From: Colwellia hornerae
GTDB taxonomy: Bacteria; Pseudomonadota; Gammaproteobacteria; Enterobacterales; Alteromonadaceae
NCBI RefSeq assembly: GCF_007954355.1
Contig: NZ_VOLR01000011.1
Coordinates: 32,620 to 96,619, forward strand
Direction: 5' to 3'
DNA length: 64,000 nt
Shown here: piece by piece, positions 1-28,363 of the stretch
Position numbering within the stretch: position 1 is the stretch's first letter
Layout of the letters: each line of letters begins with the position of its first letter
Position numbers and translations under genes: made by a program
Notes under the pieces: generated by a model
Databases searched by the model: none
Told to the model about the DNA's origin: nothing
What the model saw: only the letters and a program-made list of their open reading frames with translations

Positions 1-414
1 TCGGTTACTTTTAAATGCAATTGAATATCAGGGTAGCACTTTAAAAACTCAACAAAGAGTGGTCGCAATACCCGATTGGCGAGCGATTTCGGTGCCGCCA
101 CTCTCAACAAGCCACTAACCGTCGATGTTGTCGAGCTACTGGCATTAACGGCTTGCTCTGCAGACTCTATCATCTGTTTACAATAATTAAAGGTTAATGT
201 TCCTGACTCTGTTAACGCTAGTTGCCGTGTAGTGCGTTGTAATAGTTTTATGCCTAGAGCATCTTCTAATCGGCTAATTTGACGACTAACCGCTGAGGGG
301 GTTACCCCCAGTTTTATTGCCGCTTTACTAAAGTTGCCCTGCTCAACGACAGTTACCAAAATAGCCATGTCAGACAATAAGGGGATTAGTTTATTTGTGT
401 CCATTAAGCACAAG
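1..414 (-). CDS. LysR-family transcriptional regulator, N-terminal HTH portion; the gene continues beyond the window start
   Basis: My own translation of the reverse strand from the ATG complement at 412-414 gives MDTNKLIPLLSDMAILVTVVEQGNFSKAAIKLGVTPSAVSRQISRLEDALGIKLLQRTTRQLALTESG..., a typical LysR HTH. It is divergent from a LysE-type exporter, the classic LysR/LysE arrangement. It is not in the ORF track because it is truncated. Confidence 0.7.
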
Positions 415-519
415 TCCTTTTACAAATAGGTGTATTGTTTTAAATTTCTCATAGATTAACATAGCCGCACAGTAACAAGTGAGTTGCTACGAAACTATTT
501 TAAATGATGAGAGAGAAAT

Positions 520-1161
520 ATGGAGTTGTTAATAAGTACTTATATGACAGAAATTATTGCAGTAAGCACCATCGCTATTTTTATGGCTATGCTACCTGGT
601 GCTGATTTTGTCATGGTGACTCGCACGAGTATCTATAATGGCCGTTTATCAGGTTTATATATGAGCTTAGGTATGTGTTTATCGGTTTGTATACATGCTA
701 GCTATTCGATTGCAGGATTAGCTGTTGTGATTGCAAATTCAGCGTGGTTATTTTCGACAATCAAATATTTAGGCGCGGCTTACCTTATCTATATTGCTTG
801 GCAGTTATTAACAACACGCGATCTGTTAAATAATGATCAAAACAATCAAACCTTAGCAATGTCGCCCTTAAACGCGATGCGTCGAGGCTTTACTTGCAAC
901 ATATTAAATCCTAAAACATCTATCTTCTTCTTAAGTATTTTTACGCAAGTGGTTTCAGTAGATACCCCAGTGATAATGCAAGTCAGTTATGGGATGATTA
1001 TTATGTTGGCTCATTTTATTTGGTACAGTGGTGTGGCTTTATTGTTATCACATCCTAGTATAATGCCTAGCTTCAATCGTCAAAAAAAGAAGATAGATAA
1101 AGTGGCAGGACTGATATTGATGATAATAGCCGTAAAGCTCATTTTAATGAATGCGGTTTAA
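520..1161 (+). CDS. LysE/RhtB-family amino-acid efflux transporter
   Basis: 213 aa with about six hydrophobic helices. The N-terminal LPGADFVMV and overall composition fit the LysE translocator family. Divergent from the LysR gene. Confidence 0.75.
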   Translation: MELLISTYMTEIIAVSTIAIFMAMLPGADFVMVTRTSIYNGRLSGLYMSLGMCLSVCIHASYSIAGLAVVIANSAWLFSTIKYLGAAYLIYIAWQLLTTRDLLNNDQNNQTLAMSPLNAMRRGFTCNILNPKTSIFFLSIFTQVVSVDTPVIMQVSYGMIIMLAHFIWYSGVALLLSHPSIMPSFNRQKKKIDKVAGLILMIIAVKLILMNAV

Positions 1162-1281
1162 GTAAACCTGCATCCTAGGTTGATTTTGCACGCTATTGCA
1201 TAGTGATAATGTGCGCAATCTGACCAACCGGAGTTAAATCTTGAGACTTAATTTGTGGACGTAAAGTCGTTCTGTATTTAT

Positions 1282-4200
1282 TTAAGTCTGCCAACTCACA
1301 TCAGGCCTCCAGTGACTAAGCCAAGCAGGAAAGTCGCTGGCAGGCATAGGTTTGGCAATGCCGTAACCTTGGGCTAAATCACAACCCATTTTTATTAGAG
1401 CTGTGCCATGTTCTACCGTTTCTACACCTTCAGCAATTACCTCACGTTTGAATGATTTAGCTAAGGCTATCACACTCTCAACAATGGCCAGATCATCAGC
1501 GTTATCCAACATATCACGGACAAAACTCTGGTCTATCTTAATCAGGTTGGCAGGTAATCGTCTCAGGTATGTCAGGGAAGAATAGCCAGTACCAAAATCA
1601 TCTAAGGCAAAATTTACACCTAGCGCCAGACAATCAGTCATTATATCTGAAATATGTGCTACATCATCCAAGGCACTTGTTTCCAAGACCTCTAACTCTA
1701 AATAGCGGGGCTCTACATGAGGGTGTGCTGCTAAAAGCGCGGTTAATCGCTGAGTAAATTCAGGTTGCTGTAGCTGTACGGCTGCAATATTTACGCTAGT
1801 GTTGACAGGGATATCAACACCCATTGCTAACCATTGGCTGATTTGTGTCAGGGTGGCGTCAATAACCCACTCACCTACTTCAATCATCATAGGATTACTT
1901 TCAATGATAGGTAAAAATTCTATTGGATTTAATAGTCCTCGTTCTGGATGCTGCCAGCGAATAAGTGCCTCAGTACCGATCACCTTGCCTGTGCGCATAT
2001 TCACCTTGGGCTGATAATGGAGTACAAATTGCTGATTATCTAATGCGCTGCGAATAGCTTCTAAGCTTTCCCTTCTTATTTTAATCGCGTCATCTTGAAC
2101 CGTATCAAATAAGTGATAACGATTCTTCCCTGACTCTTTAGCCACATACATGGCTTGGTCTGCATGGCGCATGAGTAAATCAGCATCGACATTATCTTGA
2201 GGATAAAGGGTTACACCAATACTAGCTGATACATTTAAAACCACATCACCTATTGTGGCAGGCTCTGATGCGGCCAATAAAAAGCGTTCTAATATCGGCT
2301 CACAATCATCAACGGTCGTTAAATCAGTCAACACAGCAACAAATTCGTCACCACCAATACGAGCTAAGCTATCGCCTTCACGTAACGCCGCTTTCATGCG
2401 AGCAGACAGTGTAATCAACAACTCATCACCCACATCATGTCCATGAGTATCGTTGACATGTTTAAACCCATCTAAATCTAAAAACACAACAGCGAGTGAC
2501 TTCCCGTGTCGTTTGCAGTGCAACTTGGCTTGAGATAATCGGTCTGACAGTAATACGCGATTGGGTAAATTGGTGAGTATGTCGTAATGGGCAATATGCT
2601 CCAATTGGTCTTGATGCGCTTTCATTGGAGTGATGTCGTAACCTAGAGCAACATAATGAGTAGTAACACCATTTTCATCACTTACTGCACTGATCGTTTT
2701 AAATTCGGCATATATTTCATCATTTTTTCGCCTATTCCATATTTCGCCAGACCAATAGCCTTCTTTGAGTAAGGCTTGCCACATCTCCACGTAAAACTCA
2801 GATGATTGTAGTCCAGATTGGAAAATACGTGGGTTGTTGCCCATAGATTCTTCAAGGCTATATCCTGTGGTCTTTGAGAAGGTATGATTAACATCAAGTA
2901 TTACGCCTGAAGCATCGGTGATAGCGATGCTTTCACGTGCGTGCGTAAATACGCTGGCGGCAAGTTTAAGTTTTTCTTCTGATAGTTTACGTTCAGCAAG
3001 TAGCCTTGATTGTTTAATGGCACTAAAACTCGACGTTGAAATAATGTCGGCAAGTTTGGCATAAAAATGCATTCCTTTAGACACTTCTTCATGGGTAAAA
3101 CGAGGGACTTTATCTAATGCGGCAAGGTAAGTTTTTTCGTCAAAACCATAACGCTTTGCTTGCGTTTTAAATAACGCAACATCGGGAACTTCATCCTTAT
3201 AAAAGAATTGGCCAATAAAAACATTACCGAGGTGCTTGCCTCCTATAATAATGGGAGTGGCCATGTCCCACATATTATTCTTACAATGGTATGCCTTAAA
3301 TTTACCGTGTTGTATTCCTAGTGTGAGAATCGTATCACTTTCAATGCAATTTTTTCTCGTTTCATGGTTACAACGATGAAATTGATTACAGATATCCTGC
3401 CAACCAACAGCAACTAAAACATTCCCTTTAATATCAAGTATCGCGCCTAACATGCCAGTGAGGTGATAAAAATCATCCATCAAAGATTGAAGTACCTCAG
3501 CATCAATGATGTCGGATAATTCTAATGCATCAATGTTAGCATCGGGCTCTAATATTGCTTTTAGCTTTTTTCGAATAGTGGCTTCGCTTTGGCGTAAAGT
3601 ATCTTCTGCATTTTTACGCTCAGTAATATCCTGGATAAAACCAGTCATTATTTGGGGTATTCCATCACTGTTAGTGACAACTTTACCTCGAGACTCTATC
3701 CAGCGCTCTTCTCCATCATTGGGTCTAGTAATTCGATATTCGACATGATGCTCATGACCACTAGAGAAACATGCCTTAACGGATGCAATAAAGGTTGGGA
3801 AATCACTTTCATTAATAACATCTCTTAATGTTTCTACGCCAGCGTTAGACTCTCGAACGAGTCCAAATAAAGTATACATTTGATCAGACCAAGAGGCATT
3901 TTCCTGATCAGAATATAACTCCCAAGAACCTATTTTTGCATAAGCTTGGGCCTCTTTTAACTTAGACTCACTTTTTTTAAGTTGTACCAAAGAATTTTTA
4001 TAGTTAGTAATATCTCTGGCGACACCTAATATGCCGATTAAGTTACCATCACTATCTTTTATCGGTGTTTTTATTGTTTCGACAATTTCACTGCGGCCAT
4101 CATCTGCAAAAGTAAGTGACTCTTCATTGATAATCGATCCATCTGCAAGCATGGCATTCTTATCATCTTCCTGAAAAAAATTGGCAAGTTTTTTATCTAC

Positions 4201-5238
4201 AAAATCATTATCAGTCTTACCTATAATGTTACCTTCTTGCTCACCAAACATTCTTGCAAATTTAGAGTTGCAGAAAAGATAAACACCTTTTTTATCTTTT
4301 AGCCAAATCATATCTGGCACAGTATTGATCAATTTATTTATCAGTGCTTGGCTTGATTCTAATTCTCTATAAGAGTTTTTTAGTATTCGCTGTATCGATT
4401 TTTCTGCGCTTATATCCTGAAAAATACCGACTAGTTTAGCTATTTTTCCTGCCTCTTTTTTTACTATGCAGGTCGTTCTTACATCAATTAATTTTCCCTT
4501 TGTGGTGTATGTTTCTAATTCTAAATCATAGCCTATCCCTTGGTTAATCGCGGCATCTAAAGCTTTTGTAATCATGTGTTTTGATTTCGGCGAAAAGTAA
4601 TTTACACCGGCATCTACCGTAGGATTAAATTCTTCCGGAGATGTTTCATATATACGATAAGTTTCTGCTGTCCAAAATAAATCACCTGATAGTAAATCTA
4701 ACTGCCAGCCACCTACTTTTGCGATTTTTTGAGATTCATCTAAAAGATGGCTCGTTGTTATTATTTTTTGATCATTTAGCTTTCGTTGAGCAATATTTTG
4801 ATGAATACCTATCATGCGTTTAGGTAAACCATTTTCATGCCATTCAATCGTTTTACCGGTCGCTAATACCCAAACATATTGCCCTTGTTTGTGCTTCATT
4901 CGTACTTCTACTTCAAAGCGCTTATTTTGTCCTTGAAAGTGCTTTTCTAAAAGCTTATTTGCTATGATAAAATCTTCAGGATGAATATACTCAGTCCATT
5001 TTTCAAATTGAATGGGTTGTAATTCTGTTAAACTATAGCCAATAATATCAGCGCAGTCGCCATTAAAAAAAATCTCACCCGTTTGAATTTGCCAGTCCCA
5101 AAGACCTACTTCTGTAGCTTGTATAACTAATTCAAGATGTTCTAACTTTGATTTTTCAGATTCTTGCATAGAATCAAGATTCCTATAAGAGCGTATTGGT
5201 AAATATATGAACAAGACTAAGTAAGATAACTTAAGCAT
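1282..5238 (-). CDS. Multi-PAS/PAC sensor with GGDEF diguanylate cyclase and EAL phosphodiesterase domains (1318 aa)
   Basis: Several PAS/PAC-like segments. An intact GGDEF motif is present (ARIGGDEFVAVL). EAL signatures are present (EALIRWQHPERG, ELEVLETSAL, DDFGTGYSSL, QGYGIAKP). Confidence 0.9.
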   Translation of the reverse strand: MLKLSYLVLFIYLPIRSYRNLDSMQESEKSKLEHLELVIQATEVGLWDWQIQTGEIFFNGDCADIIGYSLTELQPIQFEKWTEYIHPEDFIIANKLLEKHFQGQNKRFEVEVRMKHKQGQYVWVLATGKTIEWHENGLPKRMIGIHQNIAQRKLNDQKIITTSHLLDESQKIAKVGGWQLDLLSGDLFWTAETYRIYETSPEEFNPTVDAGVNYFSPKSKHMITKALDAAINQGIGYDLELETYTTKGKLIDVRTTCIVKKEAGKIAKLVGIFQDISAEKSIQRILKNSYRELESSQALINKLINTVPDMIWLKDKKGVYLFCNSKFARMFGEQEGNIIGKTDNDFVDKKLANFFQEDDKNAMLADGSIINEESLTFADDGRSEIVETIKTPIKDSDGNLIGILGVARDITNYKNSLVQLKKSESKLKEAQAYAKIGSWELYSDQENASWSDQMYTLFGLVRESNAGVETLRDVINESDFPTFIASVKACFSSGHEHHVEYRITRPNDGEERWIESRGKVVTNSDGIPQIMTGFIQDITERKNAEDTLRQSEATIRKKLKAILEPDANIDALELSDIIDAEVLQSLMDDFYHLTGMLGAILDIKGNVLVAVGWQDICNQFHRCNHETRKNCIESDTILTLGIQHGKFKAYHCKNNMWDMATPIIIGGKHLGNVFIGQFFYKDEVPDVALFKTQAKRYGFDEKTYLAALDKVPRFTHEEVSKGMHFYAKLADIISTSSFSAIKQSRLLAERKLSEEKLKLAASVFTHARESIAITDASGVILDVNHTFSKTTGYSLEESMGNNPRIFQSGLQSSEFYVEMWQALLKEGYWSGEIWNRRKNDEIYAEFKTISAVSDENGVTTHYVALGYDITPMKAHQDQLEHIAHYDILTNLPNRVLLSDRLSQAKLHCKRHGKSLAVVFLDLDGFKHVNDTHGHDVGDELLITLSARMKAALREGDSLARIGGDEFVAVLTDLTTVDDCEPILERFLLAASEPATIGDVVLNVSASIGVTLYPQDNVDADLLMRHADQAMYVAKESGKNRYHLFDTVQDDAIKIRRESLEAIRSALDNQQFVLHYQPKVNMRTGKVIGTEALIRWQHPERGLLNPIEFLPIIESNPMMIEVGEWVIDATLTQISQWLAMGVDIPVNTSVNIAAVQLQQPEFTQRLTALLAAHPHVEPRYLELEVLETSALDDVAHISDIMTDCLALGVNFALDDFGTGYSSLTYLRRLPANLIKIDQSFVRDMLDNADDLAIVESVIALAKSFKREVIAEGVETVEHGTALIKMGCDLAQGYGIAKPMPASDFPAWLSHWRPDVSWQT

Positions 5239-5447
5239 CTAAAAAAAAATTTATTACAGATCAATAAATTGCTGTATTTACAATCATTTCTTCTTGCGTA
5301 ATTTACTGATTTTTTATGGTTGTTTTTATTGTTGGGGGATTTATATTAATAAATTGGCTTACTGAAGCGCTCAAGTTTGATTTAAAGCTGTATTAGCATT
5401 ACATTTATTAGACATGGTTAAATAATAAACATATTTACGGATTAAAT

Positions 5448-7700
5448 GTGGCTGAATCTTTGATATCAGAACTGAAAAGGCGAAATGTTTTCAAGGTTGG
5501 GGTTGCCTACCTTGTACTTGCTTGGGTCGTTGTTCAAATTACGTCTATTGCTGTTCCGGCATTACATTTGCCTAATTGGATTAATACCGCAGTATTTTTC
5601 TTTGGTCTTATTGGTTTTCCCTTTGCTCTTTTTTTTGCTTGGGCGTTTGAAATAACACCCGACGGTATTAAACTTGAATCAGGCATATCATCTGGAGATT
5701 CCACCGCTGCTCTTACGGGGCGTAGGTTAGATTTTATCATTATAGGTCTTATGTCAATTGCCTTGCTCTACTTTATTTATGAGAGCCGTTTTCAATCAGC
5801 CACTGCTCTAGTCTTACCAACGGATCAAGCTGAAGTTATTGCCCAAGTTTCCATCAAGGTTAATACAAATAATCCATCAATATCAGAGTCAAAGGGCACT
5901 TCTATTGCAGTCCTTCCTTTTGTAAATATGTCTTCTGACAAAGAACAAGAATACTTTTCAGACGGTATTTCAGAAGAAATATTAAATGTTTTAGCAAAGA
6001 TACCTAAGTTACAAGTGACCTCTCGTTCTTCTGCGTTTGCCTACAAAGATACCAAGATTAATATTTCGGAGGTTGCCAAAGTCTTAGGTGTAAAAAATGT
6101 ACTCGAAGGCAGTGTGAGAAAATCAGGTGCGAGAGTGCGCATAACCGCACAGCTTATTAATGCGGAAACAGATAAACACTTGTGGTCTGAGTCATATGAT
6201 CGCGAGCTCGACGACATTTTTCAAGTACAAGATGAAATATCAGCAGAAATTGTCGATGCACTAAAGGAAACGTTAGGCATAGTCTTAGTTAAGACCGTAT
6301 CGTCTGTGCAAACCATCAACCCTAAAGCTTATGATTTATATCTGCAAGGGCTGAGGGGACTGCATACCTATACCTTTGAAAGTTTAGATAATGCCGCGGC
6401 TGCCCTTGAGTCAGCAACAGATATAGCACCTGGTTTTTTGATGGCGCGCATTAAGTTGGCTGAAACATATGCACGTCAAATTATTACTGGCAGTCGCTTT
6501 GATTGGCAGATACTTGATAAGGCTGAAGCGCTAATTAAGGATGTTCTTAGTATTAATCCAAACTCCGCAGAAGCTTATTTTGTTCGATCATTAATTATAA
6601 AAACAGATCGTAAGCTACGTAACCAGTATGCCAAAGAAGCTTATCGACTAAATCCTAATAATGTCGACATCATCATCAGGCATGCACAATCTAATGGTGC
6701 TGGCATGGGGGAAGATAATGCCAGAGCCTTATTTAAAAGGGCACAAAAAGTTGACCCTCTTAATGCTGATCTACCGTATTTTTTTGCGGTATATTTAGTA
6801 CAAACATTACAAAAATATTCAGAAGCGGAACAAACCCTTAAGCAAGCTATTAAGGTTAACCCGAAGAATACCTTTTACCCTTTTTATTTAGGGCAAATCT
6901 ATGCGCAGCACATGGGTAAAATTGTTGATGCTATTAAGCTGGCTGAAAATGGTGCAAGATTAGACCCTAACGACCCTTATTTTCCTCAAGCACTGTCGGT
7001 CTACTACTTGTCTTTGGGTTCTGGCCTTAAATCTCTTGAGTATGCAGACAAGGCAATGTCGATTAATGCCAATAACGCGGAAATTATCAATCAAAAAGTG
7101 AATAGCCTTATTTATCTTGGCCAAACAGCTAAGGCGTTGAAACTTATTAACGATACCGTAGCCGATGCTAATACGGTATATCCCAGTAAACAACTGAAAG
7201 AGCGCTTTATTACTGGCGCAATATACGTATTAATTAAGCAGAATAAACTTGCTGAGGCAGAAACACTAATTAATCAACATATCCCCAAAATAATTGAACG
7301 GATTAATCAACCATACCCTGCAACATTGAATGATATAGAAAATATAAATGGTCTTTTGTTACTTGCCTGTGTTTATCAGGCACAAGGTCAATTAGCTAAG
7401 GCTGAAAAGCTTGTCAAGAGAGTAAAGCAACGAGACGAATCTTTTTATCTAACAGGTCAATCACGCTTATTAGGTATTGAATACATGAATCTTGCTATAA
7501 GCAGCTCACTAGAAAATAATGATGAGCAGACTATTAAATATCTCGAAGCTGCCATCGATAATGGTTATTTATATAATTGGCGTGCTCACTTATTACAATC
7601 ACCCTATTTTATCGATCTAGCGCAACGGCCAGATTTTATGGCATTAATTGGCAGACTAGAAACCGAAATGCTAAAACAAATAGCGCTACTTAAGCAATAG
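5448..7700 (+). CDS. Membrane-anchored TPR-repeat protein with TolB-N-like ('adenylate-cyclase-associated') module
   Basis: GTG start. The N-terminus ELKRRNVFKVGVAYLVLAWVVVQ and the block IAVLPFVNMSSDKEQEYFSDGISEEI...GVKNVLEGSVRKSGARVRITAQLINAETDKHLWSESYDREL.DIFQVQDEI match the conserved TolB-N-like domain seen in TPR/cyclase-family proteins. The remainder is TPR-like helical repeats. Confidence 0.7.
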   Translation: MAESLISELKRRNVFKVGVAYLVLAWVVVQITSIAVPALHLPNWINTAVFFFGLIGFPFALFFAWAFEITPDGIKLESGISSGDSTAALTGRRLDFIIIGLMSIALLYFIYESRFQSATALVLPTDQAEVIAQVSIKVNTNNPSISESKGTSIAVLPFVNMSSDKEQEYFSDGISEEILNVLAKIPKLQVTSRSSAFAYKDTKINISEVAKVLGVKNVLEGSVRKSGARVRITAQLINAETDKHLWSESYDRELDDIFQVQDEISAEIVDALKETLGIVLVKTVSSVQTINPKAYDLYLQGLRGLHTYTFESLDNAAAALESATDIAPGFLMARIKLAETYARQIITGSRFDWQILDKAEALIKDVLSINPNSAEAYFVRSLIIKTDRKLRNQYAKEAYRLNPNNVDIIIRHAQSNGAGMGEDNARALFKRAQKVDPLNADLPYFFAVYLVQTLQKYSEAEQTLKQAIKVNPKNTFYPFYLGQIYAQHMGKIVDAIKLAENGARLDPNDPYFPQALSVYYLSLGSGLKSLEYADKAMSINANNAEIINQKVNSLIYLGQTAKALKLINDTVADANTVYPSKQLKERFITGAIYVLIKQNKLAEAETLINQHIPKIIERINQPYPATLNDIENINGLLLLACVYQAQGQLAKAEKLVKRVKQRDESFYLTGQSRLLGIEYMNLAISSSLENNDEQTIKYLEAAIDNGYLYNWRAHLLQSPYFIDLAQRPDFMALIGRLETEMLKQIALLKQ

Positions 7701-7805
7701 TTAAAGCGGCAGAACGTTCGGTTTATTACTGATATTATCGAGGTGACAACGGCATCTAATCGCACTGTGATTTTGATAGTGCGAATGATGCAGTTTTTAT
7801 GGTGT

Positions 7806-8101
7806 TTTTATTCTTCTTGCAAAGCAATAGCAGCCATTTTCATGGTACTTTCAAAAGACTCTGCACCGGTTATAAATAAAACTATTTAAGCGACAAAACT
7901 TTCGGTTTTATCATGTTTTTATTCTTCTTGCAAAGCAATAGTAGCCATTTTCATGGTACTTTCAAAGGATTCTGCACCGGCTATAAATAAATCTATTTAA
8001 GCGACAAAACTTTCGGTTTTATAGGGTTTTTATTCTTCTTGCAAAGCAATAGCAGCCATTTTCATGGTACTTTCAAAGGATTCTGCACCGGCTATAAATA
8101 G
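7806..8101. repeat. Tandem repeat of about 110 bp in three copies (starting near 7806, 7916 and 8027). The third copy is the native 3' end of the MYG1-family gene
   Basis: The strings tttttattcttcttgcaaagcaatagcagccattttcatggtactttcaaaggattctgcaccggctataaata and atctatttaagcgacaaaactttcggttttat recur with a few mismatches. A diverged partial spacer (taaagcggcagaacgttcggtttatt) sits at 7701-7730. Confidence 0.9.
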
Positions 8102-8914
8102 TCCGTTATGACAGAACATTGCATCATCAATGCCGGTTACGGCTTTAAGCGCATCATCAGATAAGCCAGCCCATGCTTTAGGCAGCGATTTTCTATCTTC
8201 GAATGAACCTGGCTCAACAGGCACTGTTTGGATCCTCCATGGACCAGAACCAGAAGGATAAACCATATATAAAGCCTGTGTCGACAAAGCATGAACGGTT
8301 CTTTTCCATGGCGTGTATTTCTCTAATACAATCACTCTTGGATCTTCTGCATTCTCAATCGCTTTAGCAACAATTTCTTTGGCACTAATTCCGCCATTTG
8401 CAGAGGCAATAAATCGTGTCAAAATACGTGTTGCAAACTCAACCGCTTCATCAAAACAGCTATCAAAGTGACTATCTTCTTGCCACGTTGGGTTGAACAT
8501 TGAAATGGTTTGGCTAAGGCTAATGCCTTGGTTTATGCCTTTAGAAGCGCCTTCGGTATAGCCACAGTCAATAGCGTCAATGGTTGAAACTAAACCTGCA
8601 TCAACAGCGTTTGCTACGTCTTGGTTACCCTGACATATTTCTACGCCATATTTCTGCCAAACCAAGCCAAATGAAGAATAAGGAATACCATTTTCGCGCT
8701 CACCGGCACCACCACGTTGATGATGATCGAATCGACCGGCATCTGCGTTATATTCACCACCAACATCAATAACAAGATCTGCTTTACTGATAAGCTCTAA
8801 ATTACGCGTGCGTATGAGGTTAAAGTTAGGAAAAATGTTTTTAAGAGCAGCGATACTAAATACGTCATCTGCATGAAAATTACCGTTGTGAGTTGCTATA
8901 GTTATATCATTCAT
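8030..8914 (-). CDS. MYG1/UPF0160-family metal-dependent hydrolase
   Basis: The N-terminal HNGNFHADDVF plus DVGG...DHHQ motifs are diagnostic of the MYG1 (GAMM1) family. Confidence 0.8.
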   Translation of the reverse strand: MNDITIATHNGNFHADDVFSIAALKNIFPNFNLIRTRNLELISKADLVIDVGGEYNADAGRFDHHQRGGAGERENGIPYSSFGLVWQKYGVEICQGNQDVANAVDAGLVSTIDAIDCGYTEGASKGINQGISLSQTISMFNPTWQEDSHFDSCFDEAVEFATRILTRFIASANGGISAKEIVAKAIENAEDPRVIVLEKYTPWKRTVHALSTQALYMVYPSGSGPWRIQTVPVEPGSFEDRKSLPKAWAGLSDDALKAVTGIDDAMFCHNGLFIAGAESFESTMKMAAIALQEE

Positions 8915-20270: not shown

Positions 20271-21971
20271 TTGAATATTTCTGTAAAAAACATTATAAAA
20301 CCACTCTCACTGCTAGGGCTTATTAGTCTTACCGCTTGGTTTATCAATACCAGTATAGATAAAAATGCTGGCGGACAAGAAAAGTCGTATATTATTTCGG
20401 CAAGCAGCTATCAATTATTACAAACAGAGTTAGCCTCACTTAACGTTCAACCAACGCATCAATTAGCTATCATCAATGCTGTTGCCGTTTCCCTTAATAT
20501 TGAACAGTTAGCTCAGTTACATGCACAGTTAGACATTCAGGTTACTGAAAATTATAAAGTAGAAATGTCAGGTGGTAATGCCTGGGGTAAACGTAAATGG
20601 CAGCCAAAGTCTGTCGTGAATGACTTGATTGAAGCCTCTGCGGCGCATTCGGCCTACAATTTTGGCGATGGGGTAACCATTGGCTTTTTGGATACTGGGC
20701 TAGATCAACTAGAAGGAACCTCTTCAGGTCTTGGTTTATCGACTGATTTATACGGAAAAGATAAGTTCTGGGGAACTTATGACGCGATAAATAATAGTAT
20801 TAGTAACTATAGTAATGAAGAAAGTGGCCACGGTACTCATGTCGCCAGTATTGCCGGTAACGCCGATTATGATGTTTACGGTAAAGTTTATGGTGTTGCT
20901 CCCAATGCTTCGTTAGTCGGCATTAAAGCTTTTGATGCCGAAGGCAAGGCAACCTATGCAGATGTAATTCGTGGTATTGATTGGGCGTTACAAGTTAAAG
21001 ATCAAATCAATTTAAAAGTATTGAATATGTCGTTTAGCGGGCCTGCTCGTTCTTACTACTGGGAAGATCCACTAAACCAAGCGGTAATGAAAGCATGGCA
21101 AGCAGGTATCGTTGTAGTTGCTTCTGCAGGCAACAGCGGTCCTGATCCGATGACGATTGGCGTACCTGGTAATGTTCCTTATATAATTACGGTAGGTGCG
21201 ATGACAGATAATTACACTGCCTCTTATGTAAACGACGACAAAGTAGCAACTTTTAGTGCCGCAGGCCCGACAGTGGAAGGCTTTGTTAAGCCAGAAATTG
21301 TTGCGCCCGGTGGTCATCTATCAGGTTTGATGGCTTTTGATACGCAAATAGTTCAAGACCATCCTGAATTTCACGATGGTGGTCGTTATTTTGAAATGTC
21401 AGGCACCTCACAAGCGGCTGGCGTAATATCAGGTGTTGTCGCACTGATGTTAACGCAAGATCCAACGCTAACACCGGATGAAGTTAAATGTCGCTTAATG
21501 GACAGTGCTCATGCGGCATTCAATAATAGTGGTGAGTTAGCCTATAGTGTTTTTCAGCAAGGTTCCGGCATGGTTAATGTTGCGGATGCTTTACTCAGTA
21601 CCGCTTCAGGCTGTGCGAATCAAGCTTTAGATATTGCCCAAGATTTAGCAGGCAGTGATCATTTCTTTGGACCAGCTAACATTAATAGCGATGGTAATTT
21701 TTATGTTGAAGGTTTAGGCGATGAATATGTCTGGAAATTAAATGAAAGCAACCTTGATGGTGATACGATTATCTGGCGGATGAATTATGCTGTAAATGCT
21801 TTAGATTGGAAAAACACAGCCTCTACCGATACGATAATTTGGCGAATGAATGTAGAAACAGATACCATAATTTGGCGGATGAATTTCGAAACGGATACCA
21901 TAATTTGGAGAATGAGTGTAGCGGATAGCTCTACAGGTATCGATGTTAATAATTGGGTTGAACAGCAATAA
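20271..21971 (+). CDS. S8 subtilisin-like serine protease (third paralogue) with C-terminal TDTIIWRMN tandem peptide repeats
   Basis: Blocks DTGLD, HGTHVASIAG and GTSQAAGVISGVVALM. TTG start as in the ORF track, with AAGGGGA upstream. The C-terminus carries five DTIIWRM(N/S) repeats. Confidence 0.8.
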   Translation: MNISVKNIIKPLSLLGLISLTAWFINTSIDKNAGGQEKSYIISASSYQLLQTELASLNVQPTHQLAIINAVAVSLNIEQLAQLHAQLDIQVTENYKVEMSGGNAWGKRKWQPKSVVNDLIEASAAHSAYNFGDGVTIGFLDTGLDQLEGTSSGLGLSTDLYGKDKFWGTYDAINNSISNYSNEESGHGTHVASIAGNADYDVYGKVYGVAPNASLVGIKAFDAEGKATYADVIRGIDWALQVKDQINLKVLNMSFSGPARSYYWEDPLNQAVMKAWQAGIVVVASAGNSGPDPMTIGVPGNVPYIITVGAMTDNYTASYVNDDKVATFSAAGPTVEGFVKPEIVAPGGHLSGLMAFDTQIVQDHPEFHDGGRYFEMSGTSQAAGVISGVVALMLTQDPTLTPDEVKCRLMDSAHAAFNNSGELAYSVFQQGSGMVNVADALLSTASGCANQALDIAQDLAGSDHFFGPANINSDGNFYVEGLGDEYVWKLNESNLDGDTIIWRMNYAVNALDWKNTASTDTIIWRMNVETDTIIWRMNFETDTIIWRMSVADSSTGIDVNNWVEQQ

Positions 21972-21983
21972 CTTATTAACACT

Positions 21984-22013
21984 AGCCACTGTGTCCACAG
22001 TGGCTTTTTTATT
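21984..22013 (+). terminator. Rho-independent terminator after the third subtilase
   Basis: agccactgtg-tc-cacagtggct followed by tttttatt. It lies inside the N-terminal extension of the next ORF in the ORF track, which argues that the next gene starts later. Confidence 0.75.
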
Positions 22014-22068
22014 ACCTATATTTCTTACATTAAATTTCAATATCTCATTACTCTATAAGAGCCCTCTT

Positions 22069-25000
22069 GTGAAAAAAACACTCCTTTTATTATTAATTAT
22101 CTTTAGCTGTAATATTTCGGCACAAGAAGTAAAACTGTTTAAAAACTTTGGTATTGATAACCCGATGTCATACAACTTTGTGAGAACCATCGCTCAAGAT
22201 GAAGATGGCTTTATGTGGTTTGGCTCTTCGGAAGGCTTAGACCGTTTTGATGGTCACCAAACGTTAAGTTTCCATCATGATAGTGCTCAACCACACTCAT
22301 TAAGCTCTAATGTTATTAGCCGTATCCTTATTGATAAGCAACAAAGACTTTGGGTTGGTACCTTCGGTGGCGGCTTAAATTTATATCGGGAGAAAAGCCA
22401 AGATTTCCTCCATTTCACCAGTAAGACAACAAATACTACGCTGACTAATGATACCGTAAATGCCTTATTTGAAGACAGTGAAGGTAAAATTTGGATCGCT
22501 ACCGAAAATGGGGTAAATATTCTCAGTACTGATGAAGGGAAATGGTCAACTCAACACATTTTTCAAGAATTAGGCAACCCGAATAGCCTGACCCATAATG
22601 TTGCGCTGTCAATTATTGAAACCCGTGAGCAAGAAATTTGGGTAGGTACTAATGGTGGTGGGATTTCGGTATTTGATCTACAGGGAAATTTTATTAAATC
22701 GATTAAATATGGCGATCAAAACAGTGCGACTTATATTAATAAATTTGTCAGTAGTTTGTATTTAGATATTAATGGAGATATTTGGATAGGCACAGTTGAT
22801 AGTGGCTTATTAAAATATACCCCGAGTACAGAGCAGTTTATTCACTATCAAAATAATATAGATAATCAGTTAACGATTAGTAGCAATGCAATAAGCAGTA
22901 TTTATCAAGACTCAGCACAAAATATTTGGATTGCTACTGACAATGGTCTATCTATTTATGATTATAAAACTAACCATTTTAGTCGCTATAATAACTCTCC
23001 TAATAACCCTTACAGTATAAGTAATGATTTTGTGCTTACTTTTTATGAAGACAACCATAAGATGATGTGGGTAGGAACTTTTTCAGGCGTTAATCGATGG
23101 GATCCTAATATGGCGACCTTTCGACAATATAGTACGCAAACAAATCCTATTTTAAAAAATCACAATGTCACTAGTTTTACGCAGTTTAATCAAGGAAATG
23201 TATATTTTAGTACCTACAGTGGTGGAATTTATCAGTTGTCAGAAGTGGATAATTCAATATCACCTGTCGCTTTTAATAATGAATTTTTAGAATATAGAAT
23301 CATGGATTTGTTTGCCGATGGCAATATATTATGGATTGGGACGCGAGGCTCTGGATTGTATTCAGTCAATTTAACGACTAATAAAGTGACTGAATATAGG
23401 CATGACGAAGATGAATCTTCTATTTCAGCCAATAGTATTACCGATATTATTAAAGATAGACATGGTAATATTTGGGTCTCTACTTTTCATCAAGGACTCA
23501 ATTTACTTAACAAAAATGGTACTTTTAAACGCTTTATAAGTAATAAGTCAAACCTAGAGAAAGGACCGGGAAGTAACCATGTTGTACAATTACTAGAGGA
23601 TGATCAAGGTTTTATTTGGTTGGCTACCTTTGGTGGTGGTCTTAGTCGTTTTGATCCTAGCCTTGAAACGTTTCGACATTTTAGTCATGAGGCAAATAAC
23701 CCTAATAGCCTTTCTGATGACTTCACTTGGATAATGTTGCTTGACCATGAGCAAAACCTTTGGTTCGGAACCCAGTCTTCTGGTTTGAGTATGTTAAGTC
23801 AAGAAAATCGTTACAATAATAATTTTTCATTTACTCACCTTAATACCAAAGATGGTATGAAAAGTTTAACCGTTTACGGTATTACTCAAGATGTTTATGA
23901 TGATATTTGGTTTAGTACCAATAAAGGCATTTCTCGTTATTCAACCAGTGATAAAAGTTTTAAGCACTTTAACCTGACTCATGGCTTAGTTGACTTAGAA
24001 TACACCCATTCTGCGGTATTTAGTTCAAAGGGTAGCACTTTATATTTTGGTGCGGGTAAAGGAATGAATAGTATTAATCCAGAAAAAATTAATACCAGCC
24101 TTTTGGCTCCAGAAGTACGTTTAACCAGTATTTTAAAGTTAAATGAGCCCATGCCACTTGGCAGTAAATTATCTAATTTAAGTCAGTTGGAATTTGATTA
24201 CAGTGATCAACTGATCTCCTTTGAATATGTCGGTTTAAACTATGCAAATCCAGAATCAACACGTTATAAATATCGTTTATTAGGCTTTGATGAAGAGTGG
24301 ATAGCTGCCGGTAAGTCTCGAAGAGCCACTTATACCAATTTACCGGCGGGTAGTTATCAGTTACAGGTTATTGCCGGTAATAGCGACAATATCTGGAGTG
24401 AACCTAGCCTGTCCCTTAATATTACTGTTCATCCTGCGCCGTGGAATACTTGGTGGGCCTATTTGTTGTATGCGATGGCCGTTGCGACAATTTTACTCGT
24501 CTATTCTCGCTTTTTAAATCGGAAATTGTTATTTGAACAACAACAAAAGTCTTACCTTGAAAAACAAGTAAAAGAGAAAACGCAAAAGCTACAATCGCAA
24601 AATAGCGAGCTTGAACATGCCAATGTATTACTAGAAAAATCGGCAACGGTAGACAAAGTAACTGGGGTGCGAAGTCGCCGTTATCTTGATATTTATATTG
24701 AGCAAACTAGTCAGTTAATGAATCAAATTCATCAAAATATTTTACCGGTACAGCGAGGCACCTTACCTCGTCTTTACGTATTAATGGTTCAGGTTAATGA
24801 GTTAAGCAATGTCAGTAATAGCCAGTTGATTAACATTACTGACTTATTACTGTTTAGCCGTAATAGCGATGATCTAGTGGTACGCTGGTCAGATGATACC
24901 TTTGCTGTCATCGGTTATGAAAAAGATAACAATGCCAGCGAATTAGCGGCACGGCTTGCCAGTAAATTTGAAAAACAATTCGACAATAAAATATCGATGA

Positions 25001-25227
25001 ATATTGCTTATTCTTTTTATCCGTTTAATCGAGAGCAACCTATGGAAATATCGTGGGATCAAGTCAGTGTGATGATTGAGCTTGGTTTGACGTTAACCAG
25101 CGAAGAGCCGGCGATTGCTTGGCTTGGCTTATGTGAGCCTAAGATACAGCCATTTAGCTACTTAGCAGTGGTTCAAGGCGCTGATCTGGCTACACTTAAG
25201 CACAACATCCAAATTAAACAAGGCTAG
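22069..25227 (+). CDS. Periplasmic two-component-regulator propeller (Reg_prop x many) + Y_Y_Y domain, one TM helix, cytoplasmic degenerate GGDEF domain
   Basis: Repeated ..W.GT.gGL..yd beta-propeller units. A TM helix (WAYLLYAMAVATILLVY), then a coiled coil. The C-terminus is GGDEF-like but the motif is replaced by RWSDDTFAVIG. The likely start is the in-frame GTG at 22069 (VKKTLLLLLIIFSCNISAQ signal peptide) downstream of the upstream terminator. The ORF track extends it to 21943. Confidence 0.7.
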   Translation: MKKTLLLLLIIFSCNISAQEVKLFKNFGIDNPMSYNFVRTIAQDEDGFMWFGSSEGLDRFDGHQTLSFHHDSAQPHSLSSNVISRILIDKQQRLWVGTFGGGLNLYREKSQDFLHFTSKTTNTTLTNDTVNALFEDSEGKIWIATENGVNILSTDEGKWSTQHIFQELGNPNSLTHNVALSIIETREQEIWVGTNGGGISVFDLQGNFIKSIKYGDQNSATYINKFVSSLYLDINGDIWIGTVDSGLLKYTPSTEQFIHYQNNIDNQLTISSNAISSIYQDSAQNIWIATDNGLSIYDYKTNHFSRYNNSPNNPYSISNDFVLTFYEDNHKMMWVGTFSGVNRWDPNMATFRQYSTQTNPILKNHNVTSFTQFNQGNVYFSTYSGGIYQLSEVDNSISPVAFNNEFLEYRIMDLFADGNILWIGTRGSGLYSVNLTTNKVTEYRHDEDESSISANSITDIIKDRHGNIWVSTFHQGLNLLNKNGTFKRFISNKSNLEKGPGSNHVVQLLEDDQGFIWLATFGGGLSRFDPSLETFRHFSHEANNPNSLSDDFTWIMLLDHEQNLWFGTQSSGLSMLSQENRYNNNFSFTHLNTKDGMKSLTVYGITQDVYDDIWFSTNKGISRYSTSDKSFKHFNLTHGLVDLEYTHSAVFSSKGSTLYFGAGKGMNSINPEKINTSLLAPEVRLTSILKLNEPMPLGSKLSNLSQLEFDYSDQLISFEYVGLNYANPESTRYKYRLLGFDEEWIAAGKSRRATYTNLPAGSYQLQVIAGNSDNIWSEPSLSLNITVHPAPWNTWWAYLLYAMAVATILLVYSRFLNRKLLFEQQQKSYLEKQVKEKTQKLQSQNSELEHANVLLEKSATVDKVTGVRSRRYLDIYIEQTSQLMNQIHQNILPVQRGTLPRLYVLMVQVNELSNVSNSQLINITDLLLFSRNSDDLVVRWSDDTFAVIGYEKDNNASELAARLASKFEKQFDNKISMNIAYSFYPFNREQPMEISWDQVSVMIELGLTLTSEEPAIAWLGLCEPKIQPFSYLAVVQGADLATLKHNIQIKQG

Positions 25228-25277
25228 CTGGAGTTTTAGCTTAACAAACGAAGACCAGGCTACTATTGCGTAGCTGG

Positions 25278-25340
25278 TTTTATGTGAACCTAAGGCATAA
25301 GCATTTAGCTACACTTAAGCACAACATCCAAATTAAACAA
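25278..25340. repeat. Degenerate direct duplication of the last ~100 bp of the preceding gene (with an internal deletion)
   Basis: ttatgtgaacctaaggcataagcatttagctacacttaagcacaacatccaaattaaacaaggttagc at 25278-25340 matches ttatgtgagcctaagatacagccatttagctac...ctacacttaagcacaacatccaaattaaacaaggctagc at 25130-25230. Confidence 0.8.
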
Positions 25341-25363
25341 GGTTAGCCGGAGTAGCTTTCTGG

Positions 25364-28363
25364 TTAGCTTTTAATGAACTGTTGTTGATATTGTTTTGGG
25401 GTGCAATTAAATGACTCTTTAAAACATCGACCAAAGTACGTTTGTGATGAAAAACCAACATCTAGGGCGATTCTGCCAATTTTAGAACCGTTTTGCAGCA
25501 GTATTTGTGCTTTCGCTAGGCGGAACTCTTTAATGAAATTATTAGGTGTTGTTCCCAAGGTTACTTTCATTTTTCGTTGCAGTTGACGCTCACTCATTGC
25601 CATATTACTGGCTAGCTCTTGAATACCTAAATCAGTTTCCAAGTACATTTTGGCGACAATAGTTTCTAACTTTTCTATAAACTTTTCATCAACGGATAAT
25701 ATTGCACTTTCGCTTGGGGTTAACTGCGACACTTTCTTTACGCTACTTTCTTTTTGTTGTTCTTTTTGATGATCCCTAAATTTATGTAAATAGTTTTGCT
25801 GCAACTGCTTACGATTTTCAATTAAATTTTCAATACGGATCAGTAATTCTTGTTGATTGAATGGCTTACTTAAATACTCATCCGCTTGCAAATTCAGGCC
25901 ATGCAGGCGGCTGTCTAGGTCTGAGCGCGCGGTCAGTAAAATAACAGGAATATGTGAGGTGAGTTCATTTCCTTTTAATTGTTTGAGCACTTCAAAACCG
26001 TCAATACCGGTCAGCATAATATCGCAGACGATAAGGTCAGGAATATATTCTTCAGCTAGAATTAGCCCCTGTTCACCACTAGTCGCCAATAAACAATGAT
26101 GTTGTTGTTCAACTACACGTTTAATATGGTTTTGCATATCAAGGTTATCTTCAATAACCAAAACGACATTTTGTAGGTGATTTTTAGCTTTAGTTTTATT
26201 ATTATTTTGTTCTAGCAAGAGTGAAGAAACTTCGCTTTCTGAGACACTCATCGGTACTTGGGCTTCAATCGCAACCGATTCTTTTGCAGGAATAGATAAA
26301 GAAAATTTACTGCCTTTATTATACTCACTGACTAAATTGATACGCCAGTTATGCGCTTTTACCAATTCATTAACTAGTGATAAACCAATACCAACACCAA
26401 AGACAGCATGATTTTTTTCATCATCGGCTCTTTGAAATCGTTCGAAAATCTTAACTTGTGATGCTTGATTAATACCAATGCCAGTATCGGTAATATCTAG
26501 AATAATATTATCTTGCTCGGCATAAGCGCAAACCTTGATACTGCCACCTGCAGGTGTATATTTAATCGCGTTAGCCAGTAAGTTGAAAATTATTTTTTCA
26601 AAACCTTGAGCGTCACACTCTAGCCAAAGATCATCAGAAATATCAGCGTCAAAGCTTAAATCATTTTGCTTAGCTAAGCGTGAAAATGAATCAATTGGCA
26701 TAGCCATTAGTTGGCTTAACCGATAAGTAGACAGCGAAAGCTTAGGGTTATCGGTCAGGCGCGAAAGCTCTAAAAGCTGTTCAACCATTCGCACTAACCT
26801 TAAACCATTGCGCTTAGCGGTGGTGAGCTCTAATCCTTCTTCTTTACTTTGAGCTTTTAGTAAGTACTGATCTAAAATGCCATTAATAATCGTTAACGGC
26901 GTTCTAAATTCATGAGAAATATTAGCGATAAATTTATCTTTTAAATCTAAAGTTTGTTTTTCAGCTAATTTTCGTGCGGTCAAATTAATAAAGGTAATAA
27001 CAATAAGCGGCTTTTCTTCGCGGTCTGCCCACTGTAATTCCGCCTGTACTGGAAATTCGGTGCCATCTGTTCTGCGCGCCATACACTCTACTGAAATACC
27101 AATATCTTTGCGTTGTAGTGCATAAACATTACTTTTAAAACCAAAAAAGTAATGCATGGTATCTTCAGATGAAAATAAGGTACTAACATTTTTGTCGGTT
27201 AACTCATGTTCTAAGCTCTGGAACATTTGCACGGCTGCAGGATTTGACGATAATATTTCACCGTCAATTGAAGTGGTTAAAATGGCATTACTTGATGCGC
27301 GAACAATGGCCTTATCTTCACTATTGAGGATAGAACTGATTAATTTATGATTCTTTTGTGTTAACGCTTTATTTTCTTTTTGCTGAGTAAAAACTTGTTG
27401 CTTAAAGTCCAAGGTGTGCTTTCTTTTATTGTAAGCAATTAGCACAACCAAAATAAAAGCAATAACACCCCAAATACCAATAACAAAAGACTGCCAGAAA
27501 GAATTGGTTATGTAGAACGTACCAAGTTCTAAACCAGCAACATGAATACTAAAAATAATACTCACCAGTAATAAAATGTAAAGTTCGGGATAGGTGTCTT
27601 TGGCGATAGGTTTAGCTGGGTTTTGTGTATTTAAAGAGGCACTAGCTGCAAAGATAAGCGCGCAATAAGGAATTAGCGCCACTAAACTTTTTATATAATC
27701 ATCGCTGTATAGTGCTTGACCTTGAATGAGAAAATAATAATTAACGTTAGCCATTAATAAGGCAAGTGAGCCAATAAATAGTGGCCAATAAATAGCGCGC
27801 CAAAACTTTTCTCGACAAAAAATAACACAGCTCATTAGTCTGATAAAAATAAGACCAGAAATGGTGATGTGAAATAATAATGACGGTAATAATCTGTGGT
27901 CTAATGCTTTTGAAAATTCTTCTGGCAATAAAACGAAATAACAAAAACAGGTTACGGTAAAAAATAGTGCCGGCATCCGACCAGCAATATATTTATTGAG
28001 AGGGGTTTCGCTGAGGTGTGGGTTGGTTTCTATGGCTAATAAGATAAAGAAGTAACTAAATAATGAGAAAAAATCTTGCAGTACCGGCGTGGTATTAATG
28101 TAGTCACCGGCAAAAATAATACCCGAAATAAGATCAACAATTATAGCGAGAGAGAAAAACTGCCAGAATAACTTTAATGAACGTGACTTGGTCTGTAGAT
28201 AGCTAAAAATAACAAAGAATACTGCAATAGCCTGCAACAAAATAGCGGGCAGCGATAACAAAAAAGAAGATGTAATATTCAAAGCGCTAGCTATCGTGGT
28301 ATAGGGTAATAGGGATAATATTATGGAGATAAATAAAAGGGTTAATTTATTAAAATATAGCAA
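25364..28363 (-). CDS. Hybrid sensor kinase: 7TM (7TMR-DISM-like) + PAS + HisKA/HATPase + receiver + AraC-type HTH
   Basis: About 8 TM helices at the N-terminus. H-box FIANISHEFRTPLT. N, G1 and G2 ATPase blocks (DTGIGI, GVGIGLSL). Receiver VLVIEDNLDM..D. The C-terminus GFSSQTYFGRCFKESFNCTPKQY is AraC-like. Confidence 0.9.
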   Translation of the reverse strand: MLYFNKLTLLFISIILSLLPYTTIASALNITSSFLLSLPAILLQAIAVFFVIFSYLQTKSRSLKLFWQFFSLAIIVDLISGIIFAGDYINTTPVLQDFFSLFSYFFILLAIETNPHLSETPLNKYIAGRMPALFFTVTCFCYFVLLPEEFSKALDHRLLPSLLFHITISGLIFIRLMSCVIFCREKFWRAIYWPLFIGSLALLMANVNYYFLIQGQALYSDDYIKSLVALIPYCALIFAASASLNTQNPAKPIAKDTYPELYILLLVSIIFSIHVAGLELGTFYITNSFWQSFVIGIWGVIAFILVVLIAYNKRKHTLDFKQQVFTQQKENKALTQKNHKLISSILNSEDKAIVRASSNAILTTSIDGEILSSNPAAVQMFQSLEHELTDKNVSTLFSSEDTMHYFFGFKSNVYALQRKDIGISVECMARRTDGTEFPVQAELQWADREEKPLIVITFINLTARKLAEKQTLDLKDKFIANISHEFRTPLTIINGILDQYLLKAQSKEEGLELTTAKRNGLRLVRMVEQLLELSRLTDNPKLSLSTYRLSQLMAMPIDSFSRLAKQNDLSFDADISDDLWLECDAQGFEKIIFNLLANAIKYTPAGGSIKVCAYAEQDNIILDITDTGIGINQASQVKIFERFQRADDEKNHAVFGVGIGLSLVNELVKAHNWRINLVSEYNKGSKFSLSIPAKESVAIEAQVPMSVSESEVSSLLLEQNNNKTKAKNHLQNVVLVIEDNLDMQNHIKRVVEQQHHCLLATSGEQGLILAEEYIPDLIVCDIMLTGIDGFEVLKQLKGNELTSHIPVILLTARSDLDSRLHGLNLQADEYLSKPFNQQELLIRIENLIENRKQLQQNYLHKFRDHQKEQQKESSVKKVSQLTPSESAILSVDEKFIEKLETIVAKMYLETDLGIQELASNMAMSERQLQRKMKVTLGTTPNNFIKEFRLAKAQILLQNGSKIGRIALDVGFSSQTYFGRCFKESFNCTPKQYQQQFIKS

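Follow-up and report, generated by a model that had tools for sequence, protein, structure and literature searches.

Tandem duplications that have one breakpoint inside a gene leave 3'-terminal fragments of this gene behind and are amplified by RecA-dependent unequal crossing-over. Another type of tandem array is represented by the mycobacterial interspersed repetitive units (MIRUs), minisatellites in the Mycobacterium tuberculosis genome whose copy number variation serves epidemiological typing (PMC3635867). Here we analyze a repeat array of Colwellia hornerae that is comparable to both. It lies downstream of a MYG1-family gene, in a stretch of 64,000 nucleotides (assembly GCF_007954355.1, contig NZ_VOLR01000011.1, positions 32,620 to 96,619 of the forward strand), which in the following is called the window and whose own numbering is used throughout. 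We consider the array, with a probability of roughly 0.8, to be a single-locus bacterial minisatellite, or variable number tandem repeat (VNTR), built from MYG1's own 3' end. From its structure and its variation between strains we infer that the repeat is probably neutral and maintained by unequal recombination or slippage.

Like the MIRU-VNTR loci of M. tuberculosis, the array is composed of head-to-tail units, which are tens to about 100 bp long and intergenic beside gene ends. Moreover, in both cases the copy number varies between close strains, presumably by slippage or unequal recombination, and a function is not required. However, MIRUs are dispersed over about 40 loci, whereas the Colwellia unit was seen at one locus only, and, unlike a MIRU, it is a copy of the adjacent gene's 3' coding end that is homogenised with it by concerted evolution. 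With partial gene duplications the array has in common that the first copy is the intact gene, that the extra copies are promoterless 3' fragments, and that the duplicated homology allows amplification and collapse. A second example in the window (25122-25353) is of this kind too. Typical tandem duplications, in contrast, are kb-scale and quickly lost, whereas the Colwellia unit measures 111 bp and has outlived a species split with homogenisation. Finally, the array resembles the attL/attR duplications of gene 3' ends (tRNA, tmRNA or protein genes) in that orphan 3' ends lie downstream of an intact gene, and in that a single-copy allele has the appearance of a recombinant between the outer copies. 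It differs from them in that neither an element nor a recombinase nor foreign DNA separates the copies; the DNA between them is itself gene-derived.

The array points to no new biological mechanism and is probably an ordinary bacterial minisatellite. It offers a clean example of how a minisatellite is born from a gene 3' end, including a spacer made by decay, as well as concerted evolution and collapse over a species split. It is also a ready VNTR marker for typing otherwise identical sea-ice isolates of C. hornerae and of the related BRX clade (Colwellia sp. BRX isolates), and a breakpoint for short-read assemblies, whose contigs stop there.

A tandem array of 111-bp units at the 3' end of MYG1

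Tandem Repeats Finder detects a repeat at window positions 7795-8100 with a period of 111, 2.8 copies, 94% matches, no indels and a score of 549, and a separate repeat search of the window recovers the same three in-register copies. The array thus shows the head-to-tail repetition of units (period 111, 2.8 copies, 94%) that is expected of a bacterial minisatellite. This bears out the initial annotation of this DNA, according to which the 3' end of a MYG1-family gene has been multiplied head-to-tail. What is repeated are the last 23 codons with the stop codon (71 nt), followed by 13 nt of the 3' flank and by a spacer of 27 nt. The codons, the TAA and the 13 nt, which have the form AAAC-NNN-ATAAAA, make up an 84-nt core termed A. 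In gene orientation, which is the minus strand, the order is A1, B1, A2, B2, A3, where B is the spacer and A1 belongs to the gene. The region comprises the following features.

8030-8914, minus strand: MYG1/UPF0160-family gene, 294 aa, whose intact 3' end is repeat copy 1 (open reading frame and Pfam)
8017-8100, minus strand: copy 1 (A1), last 23 codons, stop codon 8030-8032 and 13 nt of 3' flank
7990-8016, minus strand: spacer B1, CCGAAAGTTTTGTCGCTTAAATAGATT in gene orientation, the end of the native 3' flank plus decayed AMFCHNGL codons
7906-7989, minus strand: copy 2 (A2), stop codon 7919-7921, private single-nucleotide polymorphism (SNP) at 7942, private trinucleotide CAT at 7912-7914
7879-7905, minus strand: spacer B2, one mismatch to B1
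7795-7878, minus strand: copy 3 (A3), stop codon 7808-7810, private SNPs at 7856, 7859 and 7870, trinucleotide GGT at 7801-7803
7728-7794, plus strand: 67-nt hairpin segment flanked by TTTAT/TTTTAT, between A3 and B0, which breaks up the third unit (RNA fold)
7701-7727, minus strand: B0 (ATAAACCGAACGTTCTGCCGCTTTAAC in gene orientation), an older, more diverged spacer-junction copy directly next to the TPR stop codon
5448-7700, plus strand: convergent neighbour, a 750-aa TPR-repeat protein whose stop codon bounds the repeat region (open reading frame and domain search)

Translated in the frame of the gene, the array shows ...LFIAGAESFESTMKMAAIALQEE three times, first as ...DDAMFCHNGLFIAGAESFESTMKMAAIALQEE and then twice more as LFI(A/T)GAESFESTMKMA(A/T)IALQEE*. 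In-register comparison of the units starting at 7795 and 7906 gives 104/111 identities, that of the units starting at 7906 and 8017 gives 89/111, with only 4 mismatches within the first (shared) 84 nt. The number of mismatches between copies is therefore 4-7, slightly more than the 3-5 counted initially. Altogether there are about 11 differences among the copies, namely C/T, A/G and T/C transitions and a trinucleotide block. This trinucleotide, 7 nt past the stop codon (8023-8025, 7912-7914 and 7801-7803), reads AGG, CAT and GGT on the plus strand and is different in all three copies.

Copy number varies between close relatives

The assembly of a near-clonal C. hornerae strain (Logan SRR8475070, contigs L001/L095) has no differences to the window over 18.7 kb of flanks. 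All mismatches are confined to the repeat, which is present in one copy. This single copy is chimeric: it has the A1 states at the three 5' SNP sites and the A3 trinucleotide at its 3' end. The 67-nt segment and B0 come next, and the 27-nt spacer is missing. Since the flanks show 0 substitutions in 18.7 kb but the copies about 11 differences among each other, the array predates the split of these strains, and recombination between A1 and A3 has recently collapsed it into the single-copy allele.

We surveyed the 20-kb loci of 80 MYG1 genes from GTDB representative genomes whose products are 82-90% identical to that of the window at the amino acid level. All 80 loci have one copy and none has the spacer; the DNA downstream of the gene is different in almost all of them. 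As a side aspect, MYG1 is 82-90% identical across Colwellia, Psychromonas, Paraglaciecola, Neptunomonas and Pseudoalteromonas denitrificans, which belong to different families and orders. Divergent DNA after the stop codon of such a conserved protein suggests either horizontal spread of the gene or a hot spot of rearrangement at its 3' end.

Closer relatives were reached through the 90% cluster of the TPR protein, which contains Colwellia sp. BRX isolates, metagenome contigs and one metagenome-assembled genome (JGI, NCBI). The BRX isolates and related contigs keep the convergent TPR/MYG1 arrangement with variable intergenic distances, whereas in the remaining members of the MYG1 90% cluster different genes lie downstream and the array was not found. 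BRX strains are about 99% identical to each other in TPR and MYG1. Compared to the window, the identity is 94% for MYG1 and 89-90% for TPR. The BRX clade has alleles with one, two and six copies.

One copy: L082, single copy
Two copies: L087, L088, L091 and L092, period 105; a 6-nt deletion shifts the stop codon and MYG1 ends in QEEK
Six copies: L083, period 111 (Tandem Repeats Finder, 5.7 copies, 92% matches)
Six copies: L084, as L083, but with one 122-nt unit via an 11-nt internal duplication

In L087 the 6-nt deletion, seen at 6528-6560 in comparison with L083, removes the normal TAA, so that MYG1 becomes one residue longer (295 aa).

The locus therefore has 1 or 3 copies in C. hornerae and 1, 2 or 6 in BRX, as is characteristic of a VNTR, and the VNTR-like variation that was initially suspected is borne out by 1, 2, 3 and 6 copies at the same locus in close relatives. 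The units of both clades have the 5' boundary, the GCTTAAATAG-type spacer and the 111-nt period in common; the BRX spacer, CCAAATGTTTTGTAGCTTAAATAGCC, is homologous to that of the window, and a homologous B0 and hairpin segment lie between the BRX array and TPR. The units of each clade, however, carry the substitutions of their own clade (GGTGCAG/ACCATG/GCTTTG versus GGAGCAG/ACTATG/GCATTG), which are the same as in the functional gene end of that clade. Common boundaries and a common spacer combined with clade-specific substitutions point to one ancient origin followed by concerted evolution. Judged from these alignments, the array predates the split of C. hornerae and the BRX clade. The view that the duplication is recent thus had to be given up, since the array is common to a clade that has diverged by 6% (MYG1) to 10% (TPR); only the changes in copy number are recent. 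In the literature on the sequenced C. hornerae and BRX strains nothing usable was found.

The spacer is derived from the gene

The multiplied element had first been described as a gene end plus a spacer. However, MAFFT aligns the spacers to the gene codons that adjoin the core on its 5' side (AATGTTCTGTCAT---AATGGCC versus AATGTTTTGTAGCTTAAATAGCC), which adds one feature to the list above.

8101-8120, minus strand: the (A)MFCHNG(L) codons of the gene, immediately 5' of copy 1, the intact counterpart of the spacer of the extra units (MAFFT)

BRX spacers read MFCSLNSL in frame, and the extra BRX units still read MFCSLNSLFIAG...QEE. Four of them are intact 30-codon open reading frames (ORFs), MFCSLNSLFIAGAETFESTMKMAAIALQEE, whose counterpart in the gene is ...AMFCHNGLFIAGAETFESTMKMAAIALQEE; the gene end opposite the extra units reads ...DDAMFCHNGLFIAGAETFESTMKMAAIALQEE. 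In shuffle tests of short spacer segments against the gene codons, p was 0.004-0.02 in BRX. The gene origin of the window's spacer follows from its homology to the BRX units, because its own statistics are weak. On this evidence the spacer reads as a copy of MFCHNGL with a one-codon insertion. It consists of 16 nt of native 3' flank and a decayed copy of eight upstream codons, and is gene-derived rather than foreign. The entire unit is a single contiguous piece of the gene's 3' end without foreign DNA, made up of approximately 31 codons, the stop codon and some 16 nt of flank.

In C. hornerae the spacer has AAG in place of ATG, is one base longer, which causes a +1 shift, and contains an in-frame TAA. 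Because of the AAG and the TAA nothing is encoded there, and the stand-alone 23-aa peptides proposed initially are not to be expected from extra copies that lack a start codon and have an in-frame TAA in their spacer.

An origin of the spacer from a mobile element or from filler DNA was considered and rejected, as there were no matches in the window, the 80 loci or viral and metagenome contigs, and as it aligns to decayed gene sequence. A search of the 64-kb window for the 29-nt spacer core (up to 3 mismatches) returned only positions 7883 and 7994, with 0 expected by chance. The check for further spacer copies that the initial annotation had proposed was thus negative in the window, the 80 related loci and viral or metagenome contigs.

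Proposed origin and dynamics of the array

We propose that in the ancestor of C. hornerae and the BRX clade a contiguous segment of about 108 bp was tandemly duplicated. Its start would have been the Met of ...DDAMFCHNGLF..., so that it took in the last approximately 31 codons together with the stop codon and some 16 nt of 3' flank. As one breakpoint would lie inside the gene and the other beyond it in the 3' flank, the gene would have been left intact with the first copy attached to it. The eight 5' codons of the extra copy may have decayed early through small indels and, in C. hornerae, through loss of the ATG and gain of an in-frame TAA, which would have turned them into an apparent spacer. 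Identical tracts in the 84-nt core (47-52 nt in the window) would then allow unequal homologous recombination or replication slippage to gain and lose 111-bp units, while gene conversion from or to the functional gene end could keep the extra cores near-identical. Small changes of the slippage type are indeed seen in BRX, namely the 11-nt duplication and the 6-nt deletion. Recombination between the first and the last core would yield one chimeric copy and remove all spacers, as in the near-clonal C. hornerae strain. The extra copies would merely extend the untranslated stretch between the MYG1 stop codon and the hairpin. The sequence of events that placed the 67-nt terminator segment and B0 is likewise a reconstruction and may have been different.

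Several observations weigh against this scenario. Taken alone, the C. hornerae spacer resembles the gene codons with weak statistics (p 0.08-0.24). The copy number in the window's strain rests on one assembly and may be under-counted. Moreover, the trinucleotide after the stop codon (CCT/ATG/ACC in gene orientation) holds 5 of the approximately 11 differences between the copies, and the homologous stretch (CTGTG/CTATT/CTGTT) is likewise the most variable part of the BRX units (L083). This hypervariability is not accounted for by simple point mutation. Finally, collapse cannot be undone, as it takes the spacer away, and among a handful of genomes it was seen twice; the array has nevertheless outlasted a species-level split. 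Such persistence is mildly surprising under strict neutrality and leaves room for selection or recombinational re-introduction.

Alternative explanations

The alternative that fares best, although we consider it improbable, is that the array is a selected cis element. It could tune mRNA stability or termination of MYG1 as part of its 3' untranslated region (UTR), insulate MYG1 from TPR or, in BRX, encode 30-aa C-terminal MYG1 peptides. Such a role would fit the persistence of the array in two clades that are 6-10% apart even though collapse is irreversible and apparently frequent. It would also fit the unit length of 111 in both clades despite compensating 1-nt indels, the ATG-initiated 30-codon ORF that is kept in 4/5 extra BRX units and in some cases annotated, and a G-U-compatible variant of a small hairpin on the sense strand. 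However, units and junctions fold like shuffled sequences (z -0.16 to -0.75). An alignment fold of eight junctions gave -5 kcal/mol with 0/15 consensus pairs covarying, a result of low power as the 8 sequences come from 2 clades, and the only Rfam match (E=0.95) is far below the gathering threshold. No terminator-like sites were detected in the array, and promoter-like sites are at background and not enriched. The array therefore does not have the folds (z -0.2 to -0.7), covariation or Rfam family expected of a structured RNA or a regulatory element in a 3' UTR, and RNA structure in the units was discarded on single-sequence folds, the alignment fold and Rfam alike. The small AAAAC/GTTTT hairpin noted in the initial annotation exists but is indistinguishable from shuffled sequence. 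Moreover, both clades have single-copy alleles (SRR8475070 and L082), and one copy suffices in the near-clonal C. hornerae strain as well as in BRX strains that are 99% identical to those with more. The suggestion that the repeat modulates mRNA stability or termination thus finds no structure, covariation or Rfam match and is at odds with near-clonal or 99%-identical strains that lack the array. As for the peptides, the mini-ORF is destroyed in C. hornerae by the AAG for ATG, the +1 shift and the in-frame TAA, and in BRX it has no clear ribosome-binding site. The more specific version, a selected and tunable 3' UTR or insulator whose 30-aa C-terminal fragments of an RNA exonuclease-family protein act as a phase-variable modulator in BRX, appears slightly less probable still.

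Some further ORFs were noted in the units. The ATG-initiated 30-codon ORFs of extra BRX units are found in L083 (6536-6961, minus strand), in L088 and L091 (6426-6518) and in L092 (5562-5654), and gene callers have annotated the ORF as a 30-aa protein in three BRX records. On the strand antisense to MYG1, L083 has a TTG-initiated ORF of 208 aa (6435-7061, plus strand) that spans the six-unit array and is not called as a gene. The period of exactly 37 codons leaves its frame open across the BRX array; in C. hornerae, this frame is closed by a TAA in every unit. Antisense small ORFs (25-26 aa in the window, 208 aa through the BRX array) were rejected as candidates, as their starts and frame are not conserved between the clades.

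Less probable again is that the copies are scars of site-specific integration, in which elements targeting the 3' end of MYG1 brought along a replacement gene end (attP) and, through integrations and deletions in succession, left tandem attL/attR-like copies. The architecture resembles (n+1) cores and n spacers, and the single-copy allele is a chimera of 5'-A1 and 3'-A3, as an unoccupied attB would be. It is also in line with such events that nearly every one of the 80 genomes has different DNA after MYG1 while the protein is 82-90% identical across several orders, which suggests a hot spot of rearrangement or transfer. However, neither integrase nor transposase nor foreign DNA is found between or beside the copies, and the DNA between the copies aligns to the gene rather than stemming from an element; without a recombinase, the hallmarks of an integrative element's att scar are missing. 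In addition, the units are of constant length, and viral and metagenome contigs lack the spacer. The finding of three cores and two spacers ('2.76 copies') is odd for a plain triplication and had been considered as a sign of Campbell-type integration, but it is resolved by B0, a further spacer beyond the 67-nt hairpin. With B0 as the third spacer the plain tandem structure is complete, and positions 7701-8100 add up to 400 nt, or 3 x 111 + 67, counting B0 and the 67-nt segment.

In about one fifth of the 80 loci, from several genera, a conserved, imperfect palindrome of about 75 nt (ATAACAATTCAAATTAACATGGACATTTTGTTACGC...CAAAATTCCAGTTATTTGGGTCGTTAT) follows within about 20 nt after MYG1 (L021, 7085-7185, and L008, L011, L013, L014, L026, L030, L031, L041, L049, L054-L056, L058, L059, L071 and L074). 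Its RNA fold has -23 kcal/mol and a z of -4.6, it has no Rfam match, it looks attC-like or like a repetitive extragenic palindromic (REP) element, and it is absent from the window. Prompted by this palindrome, an attC site or integron cassette was considered and rejected for the window, which has neither the palindrome nor a GTTRRRY core nor a cassette-like gene organisation.

That the triplication was mis-assembled from short reads of a single-copy locus is hardly credible. The one observation in its favour is that the otherwise identical assembly of SRR8475070 has one copy. However, a second C. hornerae read set speaks for the array: contig L096 of Logan SRR8475071 is identical to window 1-7833 and ends at 7833, exactly k-1=30 nt (k=31) into the 52-nt stretch common to A3 and A1. 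One further read run breaks in the same way, and contigs L085, L086, L089 and L090 from related strains stop at their arrays by the same k-1 rule. The SRR8475070 contig itself stops at 25218, after 30 nt of an unrelated repeat (window 25189-25218). Logan assemblies thus break at such repeats instead of collapsing them, and the run-through in SRR8475070 therefore most likely represents a true single-copy allele. Moreover, private SNPs distinguish each copy and the single-copy allele lacks the 27-nt spacer, so that an assembler could not have invented the copies, and independent assemblies of sister-clade isolates as well as JGI metagenomes of this clade contain homologous arrays. The possibility of an artefact, which had been raised from the start, is thereby answered by independent read sets that branch at the predicted k-1 position. 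The contig break on the gene side was also sought via the CPXCG neighbour, which returned only an unrelated 610-nt contig.

Equally implausible is a dispersed repeat family (REP-like or similar to miniature inverted-repeat transposable elements, MITEs), the template and variable repeats (TR/VR) of a diversity-generating retroelement (DGR) or an array akin to clustered regularly interspaced short palindromic repeats (CRISPR): units of about 100 nt with small inverted repeats at their junctions, and a gene 3'-end copy lying downstream as in the DGR layout, speak for it, but there are no more copies in the 64-kb window, the 20-kb loci of the 80 relatives or the viral and metagenome collections, no reverse transcriptase among the Pfam-annotated neighbours and no cas genes among the neighbours, the differences are mostly transitions and not adenine-specific, and the spacers are alike but for one base instead of unique. 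The locus thus has the properties of neither a CRISPR array nor a DGR, nor, within the sequences searched, of a MIRU-like, REP or MITE family, in agreement with the initial statement that it is not a REP element, an insertion sequence end or a CRISPR array.

Flanking genes, hairpin segment and B0

The MYG1 gene product matches PF03690 (E=1e-80) and is exactly identical to WP_146796778.1, a MYG1 family protein of Colwellia hornerae. The flanking genes encode TPR, PAS-GGDEF-EAL, CPXCG and glyoxalase proteins.

On the plus strand, the 67-nt segment between A3 and B0 folds with -23.2 kcal/mol (z -3.0) and UUUUUAU comes right after it; the minus-strand fold has -17.6 kcal/mol (z -4.4) and no U-run. 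With its G+C-containing hairpin and U-run, 7728-7794 has the two elements of an intrinsic terminator, although a simple terminator scan did not list it. The segment is probably the intrinsic terminator of the convergent TPR gene, as the fold predicts. It is present in the single-copy allele, and a diverged version occurs in the BRX strains. It was also considered as a MITE, which was rejected since there is no second copy in the window or the loci and the terminal inverted match is only 6 nt.

B0 matches spacer B at 20/24 ungapped positions, plus the preceding ATAAA, and 0/5000 shuffles of the local neighbourhood reached its score; one chance match of equal score exists elsewhere in the 64-kb window. 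The fourth, decayed spacer that had been noted at 7701-7730 is accordingly real, with 7701-7727 as its limits. Every BRX allele, also the one with a single copy, has a homologous B0. In BRX, B0 agrees with the gene codons at 12/15 positions (p=0.004) and is nearer to the gene than to B. B0 is probably what is left of an older duplication that has otherwise decayed. In BRX, an alignment for a fourth, decayed core in the stretch from B0 to the TPR stop codon was not significant.

Other repeats in the window

At 25122-25353, the last approximately 105 nt of a Reg_prop/Y_Y_Y/GGDEF gene (21943-25227, plus strand) and about 45 nt downstream of it are present twice at a period of about 150. These 45 nt include a terminator-like hairpin, CCAGGCTAC...GTAGCTGG, and then TTTTAT. 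The second copy (approximately 25281-25353) has a 32-nt deletion between GCTAC repeats. This duplication, too, lies between convergent genes, the neighbour being an HK/RR/AraC gene (25364-28363, minus strand). A simpler duplication of another gene's 3' end within the same window indicates that such events are tolerated here.

Two further repeats lie within ORFs. Near the 3' end of a subtilase-family ORF (20271-21971), a repeat with a 33-nt period and about 3-5 copies is found at 21762-21923. Finally, a direct-repeat pair of about 402-405 nt with 77-85% identity (41434-42089) lies inside a 514-aa ORF (40559-42103) and probably represents duplicated protein domains.

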